A program made the position numbers and the translations under genes. 64,000 bases of DNA from Pocillopora damicornis (taxonomy: Eukaryota), in assembly GCF_003704095.1 (NCBI RefSeq), contig NW_020847499.1, positions 310,001 to 374,000 of the forward strand, written 5' to 3'. The notes beneath the pieces are model-generated. The model had not been told where the DNA came from, did no database searches, and was given only the letters and a program-made list of their open reading frames with translations. This document shows positions 20,024 to 63,271 of this stretch, piece by piece (positions within the stretch are counted from its first letter, which is position 1; every line of letters starts with the position of its first letter).

Positions 20024-20266
20024 CTACACGCTGACGGGCTCATAATCAGCTGGTTCCTTGTCGGAGGCGTACCCATAAGGATCGTCGAGGTAACCTCGCC
20101 TTCCCTTTCGTGCTGATGGCGGGAGTCCACGGAAGCCTCTTTTGTTCTCCCTGTAGTCAAGTACCAAGTCATTGTCGTACCCAGGCTGCGGGTGGTCAGC
20201 TGGAAGTGACGTAGCTGCACAGATGGTCAACAAGAGAACCAAGGAAACAAGAAAGACCTGGGACAT
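20024..20266 (-). CDS. Secreted prepropeptide A (80 aa); predicted mature GFRGLPPSARK-amide
   Basis: Signal peptide MSQVFLVSLVLLLTICAATS, acidic pro-segment, KR-GFRGLPPSARKG-RR, acidic tail. Acceptor ...catttcag lies immediately before the ATG. Minus-strand AATAAA at 19966-19971. Confidence 0.8.
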   Translation of the reverse strand: MSQVFLVSLVLLLTICAATSLPADHPQPGYDNDLVLDYRENKRGFRGLPPSARKGRRGYLDDPYGYASDKEPADYEPVSV

Positions 20267-22534
20267 CTGAAATGATTCATTTGATCAGTTGAAATTCGGC
20301 TCATGTTATGTTTCGAACAGCTCATGGGTGAGGTCATCTAAAATCAGTGATAGAATCGTGAAACTGGTTTGGGTTATGAAATAACGAAACTTTCTAAGAG
20401 TCTATTAAATAGTTGAGACCACAGTTTGCTCGACGAAGCGCCTATACTCGTAAAATGAAGCCGAAAACGGTGCACAGAGGGGCCCATGTAAGTATTCTAA
20501 GTCCATTGAACACTGCTCGCGCTCGCTCAGCGACAAATTTATTTTATTTTTGATTACTATGCCTCGCTTCACGGATTGAAGTTTTCTGACGTTGAATGAA
20601 ATGCTAGTAGTCCAGGCACTTCTTGATCTAAAGTGTAATTTAAGTTTTCTATAAAAAACGTTCATATAAGATTCTGGAATTTCTTAAGAATTTCTCAAGA
20701 AAAACGAGTTTGGTTTATGTTTTCTTTTGAAATAAAAGAAAAAGCTCAGTACGTGTTTTAAATTACAGAAGAGGGGAAAGTTTCGCGACTCTTTGCTGAA
20801 TAAAAGAAATAAATTCCATGGCAATTGCAATTGTTTTGGGAAGAAATTAGGGAACAGCTCGATTCCAACCGATTTAATCAGAATAAATCTGTCTTTCTGT
20901 CTTACCTTTGTTAGTAGAATTATTTCTTTTTCTTTTGAACCAACCCTCTTTCCACGCCAAACACAGGATTCTGGACAAGCCTTTATTTTTGTGATCAACT
21001 TTTAAGGTGTTAAACTAAATTTGATTAGTTTTAAGGAAAACAATTAATCTTTCACCACCTGCTGCGAGCAGTGATCCAAAAGGCTGGGGTGCGGATACAA
21101 CGGAAGGAAGTGCAGATATCAAACTTATTTCCCTTTTCAAGCAAAGAATCAATTCAGGAAATTTATTCATATGGCCAAAAGGGGAGACGATCGACGATTG
21201 ACGCTTTGTCAATAAGATTATTGGTAAAATTTCTGTCAATGAGAAGTCACAAACAACCATGTTTATTTTTGGTCTCACATATTTTTACCAGTTCCAGTAG
21301 AGAGATTTGAAGAAATGATTAAGACTATAAACGATCATGAATTAACTTAACAAATAACGAATTCTGATAGGCGGACTGTAACGCTACAAAAAGGTGAAGG
21401 TAATAGATTTATCGAGGCATCCGGAGTTAGAAATATCGTAGATTTTAATAAGTGTTCAATATCATCATTTCAAATCAATTTCATCACTGATTTTTCTACG
21501 TGATATTTAAAGAGTGCAATTTAAAAAGAGTTCTGTTGAGAGCAAAATAGGTTGTGACAAAGTTTATTGAGAATTCCTAGATTTATAAATATTTTTCACT
21601 TTGCTGAGTTGAAGAGTGATACACATTCCCTCAAACATAGTCAAAAGGAAATGATATTACTAACCTTCTGTGTAAGAAGTCATCACCGAGGTCGAAATTC
21701 ACAGCATGGAACATGGTTGAAATCAATTTCGCAAGTACGAAAATGAAATTAATGTTAGAAAAGACGGAAGTTAATCAATGATACAAGAAAACTTTAATCT
21801 TACAATTTCTTTTAAAAGATTTCAATAAGGTGAGAACTCATTACACGCTCTAGACACGACGAAAATGAATCATTTTTCACTCCACCACCAAGTTGAAAAT
21901 TCACCATTTTTCTTGTGCTAGACTCCTTACTAAATGAATAAGAACCCACATCGTACATCTTCCTCAGCGATGTATCTGGTGATAAATTACCGGTAATTAT
22001 CTTTGCTAATTGAATTACAGTCATTACTCGACATTCAGCCTTACAGGATTATTTTCATCGATGCTTTTTCAGTCCTAGGTGAATGCCATTGCGAAGGCAT
22101 CAACTTACCTCCACAAATCAAACCAACTTTAGGAAAAGAAAGCTACAACGTATTCAGATAAGAGTATTATTGTTGGTTATGTTAGAATGTCGGAATTTTT
22201 TTGACTTCGTACTAAAACCAAATGGAAATCTGAAAAAAATAAACTAACTTTTTACTTTCTAAATCTCTCACGTTTGAAATATTTCGAGGGGGAACTGGGT
22301 CGAATACTTCACGTAGATGCTAACAGTTGGAGTTTCCGTGAAAAGTGAAAAGTAACAACAGAATTTTACATACCTTGATTTAAAGAGTCTCCTCTGCCTG
22401 TATTTGTGTTCAATCAATTCCTATCTAATGTTTGTTTTGATTTTGCATTTGAAATTGGGATATATCCATTAATTAGACAAGTTTTGCCTCTTCGTATTTT
22501 TTCCCGGAGGTTTAGCAATAAGCAACAAGACTTA

Positions 22535-23010
22535 CACCTAGAACCAGTACAACACTTTGATCTAGAGCTAGAACTAGAACCAGAACTAGAACAACGGAAA
22601 ATAAACTGTTTATATTCTCTCGACTAGAACTAGAAATATTTCAAGACCGAGAACTAGAACTGGTCTAAGACCTAAACTTAGGTCTATACCTAGACCTAAA
22701 TCGACCTGGACCTAGACCTAAAACTAGTGGAAGCCAGTATAAGACCTAGACCTAGACCTAGTACAGGACCTTGACCTACAACTAGGATAAGACCTAGACC
22801 TAGAACTAGACCTAGTACATGACCTAGACCTAGTACAAGACCTAGACCTAGTACAAGACCTAGACCTGGAACTAGAACCAGTACAAGACCTAGACCTAGC
22901 ACAAGACCTAGACCTAGAACAAGACCAAGAACTAGTGCAAGATCTAGACCCAGTACAAGACTTAGGCCGAGTACAAGACCTCAGGAAACTAAAGCAAGAC
23001 CTCGACTTAG
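22535..23010. repeat. Hexamer-based minisatellite (AGACCT/AGAACT/AGTACA units, about 18-bp higher-order repeat)
   Basis: Long run of AGACCT AGACCT AGTACA-type units. It explains the low-complexity LGLGLV and LELELE ORFs. Confidence 0.9.
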
Positions 23011-23345
23011 ACTAATTACAAGACTTTGTCACGGGAAAGTTTACGGAGGCGACCATGAATCATGGAAATTCATATTCGTTACGTAATTGGAAAGTCAATC
23101 CCAAATCAGTTGAAATGCCAGTCATATTTAATCGTTGTATTTTGATCTATCTAGACTTAGGCCGAGTACAAGACTTCAGAGAACTAGAGCAAGACCTCGA
23201 CTTAGACTAATTACAAGACTTTGTCACGGGAAAGTTTACGGAGGCGACCATGAATCATAGAATTCATATTCGTTACGTAATTGGAAAGTCAATCCCAAAT
23301 CAGTTGTAATGCCAGTCATAATTAATGGTTGTATTTTGATCTATA
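22958..23345. repeat. Tandem duplication of an about 195-bp unit
   Basis: AGACTTAGGCCGAGTACAAGAC...CACGGGAAAGTTTACGGAGGCGACCATGAATCAT...GTTGTATTTTGATCTAT starts at both 22958 and 23153. Confidence 0.9.
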
Positions 23346-62120: not shown

Positions 62121-62502
62121 TTTATACTAATAGATAGGCCCATCCAAGATAAAAATGTTTTGGCTCTTACAACAGGGAGAGGAAGTGAACATAACATATC
62201 GCTGGCAGTGCCCTCGGGCAGTATGAAGCGAATCTTGTGTTTTGATTGGTTACCGGTACTACACTCACACGGCTCTGTCGCAAAAAAACTTAAAGGAAAA
62301 AGGAAGTAGCAAAATAGGTGCGTTTTTCGATGAATTCTGAGTTTCTTGTTCTAACTCGAAGAAACAAAGGGGGAAATTTATCGTAGAGTCCTTTTTCTGG
62401 TTGTCCCACTTGCATCCGTTTATCGCGTACTATTTAGGTCGAAAAAAATTTCGAAAAAAATTTTCGAAATTTTGTAACATTTATTGGTCATATGATAAGA
62501 TG

Positions 62503-62660
62503 CTTATTGACTGAGTGGGAGACTGGGGCCCGACGGTAAAATATTTGGCTCTTGGTCATGACGCATTGAACTCGCTACCCTAAGTCCCTAAGTCATGATC
62601 TCGAGCCAAATATTCTCCTGTCCGGCCCTCCCCCCCCCAGTCGCCCACTCAGTCAATAAG
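62503..62660. mobile_element. MITE with perfect 17-bp terminal inverted repeats
   Basis: CTTATTGACTGAGTGGG (62503-62519) and CCCACTCAGTCAATAAG (62644-62660), with further internal inverted similarity (AAATATTTGGCTC / GAGCCAAATATT). Confidence 0.75.
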
Positions 62661-62905
62661 TACATAATACGACCCAGGTATGTTGGTAGGGCATGCATTA
62701 GTTTCCTCGTGTCCACAAATTTATCATAGTGACAGATGAGTCGAGTTTGCCGCGAGAACTTGTGTTATCATATTACGCAGGAGCTGAAGATGCAATGTGA
62801 ACACAGAGAGAACTATCTCAAAAATTATACAGTCCAACCACATGGATAAGATAAAGAAACAAGCTACTAACCTTGTGTCTATATTTGCCTGCTTCCCAGT
62901 GGAGG

Positions 62906-63271
62906 TTAATGACTTCCACTCTTTTTAATTGCTTCTAATGCTTGTTCTCGTTTGAAAGCTTTCCATATAAACTGTGGAAGGAAACCTTTAACTTGTTTAA
63001 ACAGGGATCTTTTGTTTGTGTTCAACAAGTCTTTTTCAGCCCTTTCTCCAACTAGATATTCTCGCTTGCCGTAGTCCGGAAAGCAAAGTGGAAAACACGG
63101 TTCCAATCTGCTAGGATGTTGTTTGTTGATTGCTGAAGCCAAGTCACTCTGTTGTGCGGTGTCCTGGGGTTCACTGTGATTCACCGCAATACTGTCGCTT
63201 TGTGAGGCATCCTGTGTCATCGTGCTGGCAGCAATCATCAGGAGCATCAAGATTTTGAGTATCTCGTTCAT
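62906..63271 (-). CDS. Secreted prepropeptide D (121 aa); predicted LEPCFPLCFPDY-amide plus a KR-flanked amphipathic peptide
   Basis: Acceptor ttttctcag directly before the ATG at 63271; signal MNEILKILMLLMIAASTMT; R-LEPCFPLCFPDY-GKR; KR-SLFKQVKGFLPQFIWKAF-KR. Confidence 0.82.
   Translation of the reverse strand: MNEILKILMLLMIAASTMTQDASQSDSIAVNHSEPQDTAQQSDLASAINKQHPSRLEPCFPLCFPDYGKREYLVGERAEKDLLNTNKRSLFKQVKGFLPQFIWKAFKREQALEAIKKSGSH

Follow-up and report, generated by a model that had tools for sequence, protein, structure and literature searches.

The window analysed here is a stretch of 64,000 nucleotides from the Pocillopora damicornis genome (contig NW_020847499.1, positions 310,001 to 374,000 of the forward strand). 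It contains four small genes for secreted, precursor-like proteins, called genes 1 to 4 in their order along the window, of which gene 2 is the main subject of this work. A sequence-only reading of the window had proposed the four as one fast-diverging cluster encoding peptide rings of two Cys preceded by Pro. The four open reading frames (ORFs) on the minus strand were borne out by translation, as were the hydrophobic N-terminus and the dibasic sites of each (Table 1). Gly-basic signals had been counted in three of the genes and are present in all four. The six two-Cys motifs were all found, but they come from three of the four genes only, and four of them lie in gene 2, where all 8 Cys sit in rings. 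The proposed ring size of C-x4-C applies to genes 2 and 3; the ring of gene 4, PCFPLC, is C-x3-C. In each gene a splice acceptor is located 0-10 nt 5' of the ATG: it directly adjoins the ATG in genes 1, 3 and 4 (in gene 4 by sequence) and lies 10 nt upstream in gene 2.

Table 1. Features of the four precursor genes and of the intervening LIM-domain genes (positions in the window)
Feature	Position	Strand	Remarks
Gene 1 coding exon, 80 residues	20024-20266	-	Tyr-rich acidic stretches and a single basic stretch that ends in G-RR
Gene 1 first exon (non-coding, 61 nt or more)	20906-20966	-	donor at 20906
Gene 2 3' untranslated region (UTR) exon	23593-23809	-	RNA joint; AATAAA at 23547
Gene 2 coding sequence, 172 residues	25142-25660	-	multi-copy cyclic-peptide precursor (predicted); wholly within exon 25132-25670
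Gene 2 ring 4, PGCLSWFC-QN-G then KR	25160-25192	-	predicted amide
Gene 2 ring 3, PCLTRDC-RT-G then KR	25274-25303	-	predicted amide; most conserved unit
Gene 2 ring 2, PCISWEC then RRKRR	25373-25393	-	
Gene 2 ring 1, PCISWQC then RR	25496-25516	-	predicted free-acid Cys end
Gene 2 first exon (27915-28131) and upstream promoter	27915-28430	-	RNA joint; single copy in genome
Gene 3, 94 residues	31840-33688	-	coding exons 33477-33688 and 31840-31912, splice 33477>31912
Gene 3 first exon (non-coding, 140 nt or more)	35812-35951	-	RNA joint
LIM-only-like gene	46677-51408	+	two LIM exons; convergent with the next
LIM-only-like gene	53613-57337	-	two LIM exons
Gene 4 coding exon, 121 residues	62906-63271	-	acceptor-like AG directly 5' of ATG
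Gene 4 conserved unit LEPCFPLCFPDY-G-KR	63068-63106	-	less conserved cationic segment follows

Transcription of the genes and their density in the window

The gene 2 region was present in 18 sequencing runs, 8 of which are recorded as RNA, and four RNA runs from two studies were mapped on positions 18500-38400. GT-AG splice joints were observed for a non-coding first exon in genes 1-3, for an intron in the 3' UTR of gene 2 and for a coding intron in gene 3. The 3' intron of gene 2 was found in all four runs and its 5' intron in three; for gene 3 the coding intron was found in three runs and the 5' intron in two. The joint of gene 1 (20266-20906) was seen in one run (X2). With these spliced RNA contigs, genes 1-3 are transcribed. 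For gene 4, a P. meandrina gene model joins an upstream exon at the same acceptor point, which is annotation only. Depth is inflated at about 33120-33205, where a short repeat in the gene 3 intron attracts unrelated RNA contigs by the hundred.

The density of such genes was compared with the rest of the genome by a filter for a hydrophobic N-terminus (signal), a polar body and at least two dibasic or basic clusters. The filter was passed by 4 ORFs in the window and by 9 in 1,190,459 background bases, drawn from 120 stretches elsewhere in this genome. A splice acceptor at the ATG was present in all four of the former and in none of the nine latter. Since the filter was set after the genes had been seen and the window was itself selected, the density is to be read as an enrichment and not as a strict probability. 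The remaining 318 kb of the contig gave no extra precursor-like ORF through this filter, which would miss spliced signal peptides.

Conservation of the gene 2 rings

Of 60 candidate relatives of gene 2, 13 were accepted at E<=0.01, with identities of 37-98%, and a profile search against 1.84 billion representatives returned 16 matches at 50% clustering, 11 of them new. Paralogue searches within the genome turned up single copies only, gene 2 among them; the ring pattern of gene 2 matched at 16 places, its control at 10, and no second precursor ORF came to light. We examined 24 sequences of the family, excluding the degenerate fragment P0109. Every Cys beyond the signal peptide belongs to a C-x4-C pair, which makes 97 rings, 2-5 per member, of the type C-[LI]-[STA]-W/R-x-C and bounded by dibasic or Gly-basic sites. 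The first ring position is L or I in 95 rings, the second S, T or A in 90, and the third W in 70 and R in 15. RR or KR follows immediately in 42 of the 97. A Pro before the ring, described as a hallmark of the cluster, is common (62 rings) but not invariant.

The order of the units is fixed in the full-length proteins: up to three C-[LI]-[ST]-W-x-C rings at dibasic sites are followed by a CLTxDC-RTG-KR unit and a final C-[LI]-[AVS]-W-x-C-x-G unit. Changes affected entire rings. Both Cys of the first ancestral ring were lost together in the Pocillopora protein P0002, the whole ring was lost in P0010 and P0012, and the third ring unit was duplicated in P0011 and P0013. In several relatives the protein ends on the Gly of the ring 4 unit, and this terminal Gly was retained where a stop had replaced the last dibasic site, as would be expected under selection for amidation. 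The most distant family member, P0114, lacks the CLTxDC unit and carries three C-[LI]-S-W-[KH]-C rings that resemble one another; it may be a paralogue or an older form.

Across 17 aligned rows, the column identity was 0.72 in the rings (0.60 in their non-Cys positions) and 0.61 in the tails and cleavage sites, but 0.35 in the signal peptide and 0.37 in the spacers. Six metagenome loci of the family were recovered from 87 pattern matches, and five of these (L008-L012; L013 encodes the same protein as L012 and was excluded) were used for the ratio of nonsynonymous to synonymous changes (dN/dS). The ratio was 0.165 for the rings, 0.34 for the tails, 0.44 for the spacers and 0.49 for the signal peptide. 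Rings and cleavage sites are therefore kept across the family, and gene 2 is under purifying selection instead of diverging fast.

The gene structure is conserved as well. An acceptor lies 11 nt before the ATG in five of the six metagenome loci and a donor just past the stop in four; the rest read as spliced copies. The first exon and promoter of gene 2 (about 450 nt) are 70% identical to locus L011, with the donor shared, and the UTR introns and the promoter are kept in relatives that are 45-50% identical. A 21-row tree is compatible with a single orthologous lineage, without proving it, and we infer that the family occurs in stony corals.

Genes 1, 3 and 4

Gene 4 had relatives in 5 of 8 candidates, down to 52% identity. 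Among three divergent rows, its unit LEPCFPxCxPxxG-KR has an identity of 0.82 compared with 0.52-0.59 elsewhere in the protein, and the ring unit is invariant among 16 close Pocillopora-type variants. This conservation favours one amidated cyclic peptide, and gene 4 likely stands by itself as a single-copy prohormone of an amidated C-x3-C peptide. Its pattern matched at 16 places in the genome, the control at 10, and revealed no second precursor; an Atlas search gave scores of up to 0.86, which are a lead only.

The spliced product of gene 3 matches the P. meandrina protein P0063, the one match among two candidates. Its ring PCSSGGC (33566-33586) opens a cationic 17-mer between the furin-type sites RERR and RRKR. 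This 17-mer could be either a signalling or an antimicrobial peptide.

Gene 1 has no Cys beyond the signal peptide and hence no ring. Among 13 close variants, its upstream dibasic site varies between KR, KG and KE, and 5 of the 10 variable positions fall into the would-be amidated peptide (residues 43-54; p of about 0.005, for a segment chosen post hoc). The variable KR and the variable peptide argue against a conserved neuropeptide there, and the pattern hints at relaxed or diversifying selection. Six Tyr of gene 1 stand in acidic contexts, possible sites of sulfation or DOPA, and a PAD-x-x-P motif is found at both ends of the mature region. We read genes 1 and 3 as putative lineage-restricted secreted precursors, with gene 3 as the best candidate for a defence peptide.

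Comparison with known peptides

Disulphide-bridged peptides are known in Anthozoa: the available text of PMC11087051 describes GLWG and GLWL of Nematostella and 'Am_CCa', CPPGLWCamide, and reports that GLWL activates the G-protein-coupled receptor (GPCR) R18. In the genome studied here, two precursors in tandem on a different contig (L153, L159; G000:C4316:210-219 kb) contain 12 CPPGLW copies (13 matches against 0 for the control). One precursor carries 8 identical, KR-flanked amidated copies; the copies of the other are diverged and mostly non-amidated. Gene 2 resembles the CPPGLW(x)C peptides in its multi-copy Trp rings with dibasic flanks, a predicted single disulphide and predicted amidated or free-acid ends. 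Each of the CPPGLW(x)C precursors likewise has one coding exon, and one has an acceptor just before the ATG. The CPPGLW(x)C ring, however, has 5-6 residues with a PPGLW core, whereas the gene 2 ring encloses the four residues [LI]-[STA]-W/R-x. The PPGLW core was absent from all 97 rings of the gene 2 family, and the gene 2 hidden Markov model (HMM) did not score the C4316 precursors. By its sequence, gene 2 works like the CPPGLW(x)C peptides but is not a member of their family.

The coral antimicrobial peptides damicornin, AmAMP1 and digitiferin and the SCRiPs are also secreted prepropeptides with dibasic processing, but they have 6-8 Cys in one folded domain, unlike the isolated two-Cys units found here. 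The medusozoan cyclic FRamides have a multi-copy cnidarian precursor, a C-x4-C ring and, by prediction, amidation in common with gene 2. Their W-F-R(P)amide motif after the ring is absent from the gene 2 family, in which the Trp is inside the ring. A C-x4-C ring with a short amidated tail, as in rings 3 and 4, is typical of vasopressin and oxytocin, but gene 2 lacks the C-Y-x-x-N-C-P-x-G motif and has several copies per precursor. Instead of a P-x-G-amide tail, it has the predicted two-residue tails RT-amide and QN-amide. A neurophysin domain was not found in gene 2 with Pfam, and all its Cys are used by the rings. With urotensin II, somatostatin and allatostatin C, gene 2 shares a small disulphide ring with Trp; rings 1 and 2 of gene 2 would end in a free Cys. 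The FWK(Y/T) and PISCF cores are absent from gene 2, and none of the 97 family rings has Phe at position 1; the Trp is at position 3. The receptors of this group (gamma rhodopsins) are bilaterian-specific according to the available part of PMC11087051.

Seven scleractinian neuropeptide families, GPRGa, RFa, GLWa, RPa, SITRFa, FHIRa and RWa, are listed in the part of PMC7523074 at hand, and their C-terminal motifs occur in none of the four proteins. No Pfam family was assigned to any of the four proteins or to P0114, P0107 and P0068, and a PDB sequence search with the 17-row gene 2 profile gave 0 matches up to E=10. Six exact ring strings led to no relevant main text, and the gene 2 family was not found in topical literature, where titles, the starts of abstracts and main texts were covered and supplements may list the family. 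In Pfam, PDB and the catalogues searched, the proteins thus match no described family. The novelty that had been suspected holds for the gene 2 family, which is uncatalogued in these sources, but not for cyclic peptides as such, because the CPPGLW(x)C peptides are already known in Anthozoa. Gene 2 likely represents an uncatalogued coral family of cyclic-peptide prohormones; a prior listing in supplements is possible.

Neighbouring genes

Along the window, an astacin gene is followed by a RING-variant gene of MARCH type (plus strand), genes 1-2-3, an unclassified ORF, the two LIM-domain genes and gene 4. Genes 3 and 4 are about 29 kb apart. The order of genes 2-3-4 is kept in P. meandrina, where the unnamed products CAH3114211.1 (gene 2, 90% cluster), CAH3114210.1 (gene 3) and CAH3114202.1 (gene 4) are the only named relatives.

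The astacin gene (about 290-5840, minus strand) encodes a secreted metalloprotease and has the same orientation as the peptide genes. Its downstream exon is discoidin-like by eye; Pfam gave no match at E 1e-4. The unclassified ORF (38890-39192, minus strand, 100 residues) contains CCxC and CFC motifs. It was rejected as a fifth gene, since it has no signal peptide and only a BNIP3 score below the threshold (E 0.068). About 44 kb before gene 1 lies a class A GPCR ORF (L033:4916-5944, plus strand), for which tachykinin, orexin and NPFF receptors are the best matches among relatives of solved structure. A second one (L033:3020-3754, minus strand), divergent to the first, is closest to amine and melatonin receptors. 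Proximity alone is no evidence for a pairing of these receptors with the peptide genes. The same contig also carries a telomerase reverse transcriptase gene (L036-L037, G000:C4134:240-260 kb).

Discussion

Taken together, our results make it probable that gene 2 is a prohormone whose rings are released and act as cyclic peptides. The precursor would be secreted via its hydrophobic N-terminus, which is conserved in the family, from neurons or other secretory cells and cut by convertases at KR and RR. A carboxypeptidase would trim rings 1 and 2 to a free C-terminal Cys, PAM would amidate rings 3 and 4 at the Gly, and aminopeptidases would shorten the acidic spacers back to X-Pro or pyroGlu. The Cys pair of each ring would close on itself to form a single disulphide, and the excised peptides would act on receptors, probably GPCRs. 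This reading builds on the transcript, the motifs, the gain and loss of rings and the selection described above; for processing, cell type and receptor it extends the rules for Nematostella given in the available text of PMC11087051. There, Pro- and Gln-type N-termini are reported for peptides detected by mass spectrometry, and the predicted N-termini of the gene 2 rings match them. In the accessible part of PMC10501145, signalling peptides are described as having a conserved mature part with drifting signal and spacers, and toxins as having the reverse. Since the rings of gene 2 are conserved while its signal and spacers drift, they point to an endogenous multi-copy signalling peptide and not to a toxin. 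The nearest Atlas clusters of gene 2 include neuropeptide precursors that belong to many families (scores 0.87-0.90, a lead only).

Several points weigh against a prohormone. The signal peptides were called by hydropathy, the dN/dS pairs are non-independent and come from five related loci with spacers that are constrained too, and the range of the family and its orthology are drawn from sequence comparison. For gene 3, conservation was seen in P. meandrina, the one match among two candidates. The precursor of GLWL, the nearest known analogue, is broadly expressed and not neural according to the part of PMC11087051 at hand, so that the label 'neuropeptide' is not assured for gene 2. Among the four genes, a cyclic-peptide prohormone is well supported for gene 2 by its conserved rings and sites and moderately for gene 4 by its conserved, predicted amidated ring.

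The sequence-only reading had combined the four genes into one system of X-Pro-Cys rings, which is not supported: gene 1 has no ring and a polymorphic dibasic site, the ring sizes differ and the genes are without detectable homology. An origin of all four from one ancestral precursor by tandem duplication, forming one co-regulated peptide system, would explain the shared strand, the acceptor 0-10 nt before each ATG, the density above background and the gene order kept in P. meandrina. The distant relatives P0007 (of gene 2) and P0068 (of gene 4) share the value of 309,280 for the length of the longest contig, which is only a hint of linkage, and the gene 2 HMM matched P0068 with 9 bits (p of about 0.01), but P0003 and P0067 did not repeat the match. 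Pairwise alignments outside the signal peptides scored at shuffle level (best p 0.02 in 6 pairs), and hhalign comparisons of the profiles gave probabilities of 0.9-2.1%. At the DNA level, one intronic match (E=0.02) was all that the four genes have in common, and the two LIM genes intervene. The common exon layout is weak evidence because the unrelated CPPGLWC precursor on another contig has it too. We therefore regard a common origin as improbable; the genes are likely a loose neighbourhood of precursors that are unrelated or have diverged beyond recognition. A still wider proposal is a conserved stony-coral peptide-signalling hub, in which prohormone genes of old duplication or recruitment and with shared regulation would supply cyclic peptides, next to the two LIM-only genes and at 44 kb from a GPCR of neuropeptide type. 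The amidated hexapeptide rings would then be a cnidarian counterpart of vasopressin- or urotensin-type ring hormones and control a process specific to corals, for example settlement, spawning or calcification. We consider this hub a long shot.

Alternatively, the products could serve in defence, as antimicrobial peptides or venom components made by cnidocytes, gland cells or immune cells. The gene 3 17-mer, which is cationic (+3), lies between furin-type sites and is found only in Pocillopora, would fit such a role, as would the second segment of gene 4, a cationic and moderately amphipathic 18-mer (+3); the variable segment of gene 1 recalls diversifying effectors. However, the gene 4 segment is the least conserved part of its protein (0.50) and only +1 in P0068, and Pfam toxin and antimicrobial families gave no match. 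Gene 2 has a conserved mature part with a divergent signal, mostly neutral or acidic rings and a single copy, so defence is a rather unlikely explanation. An extracellular matrix, adhesive or skeletal protein that remains whole or is cleaved only in part and uses Cys and Tyr for cross-linking is least probable of all, although gene 1 is acidic and Tyr-rich and the available text of PMC12225738 describes short, taxon-restricted secreted proteins with Cys in neurosecretory cells of coral larvae, with adhesion as a possible role. The basic sites and the amidation Gly are conserved at the ring boundaries in genes 2 and 4, which weighs against a structural protein, as this would not need them.

The prohormone reading of gene 2 would add cyclic rings to the seven coral families catalogued in the part of PMC7523074 at hand, all of which have linear amidated motifs. 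Most peptide GPCRs of cnidarians are orphans, and the gene 2 rings are cheap, directly synthesisable candidate ligands for their deorphanisation. As a conserved single-copy precursor of four to five predicted cyclic peptides of 6-10 residues, gene 2 is useful for settlement, contraction, spawning and bleaching assays, and genes 1, 3 and 4 are three further unannotated precursor candidates. If the reading is true, hexapeptide disulphide rings with amidated tails exist in corals separately from the ring hormones of bilaterians.

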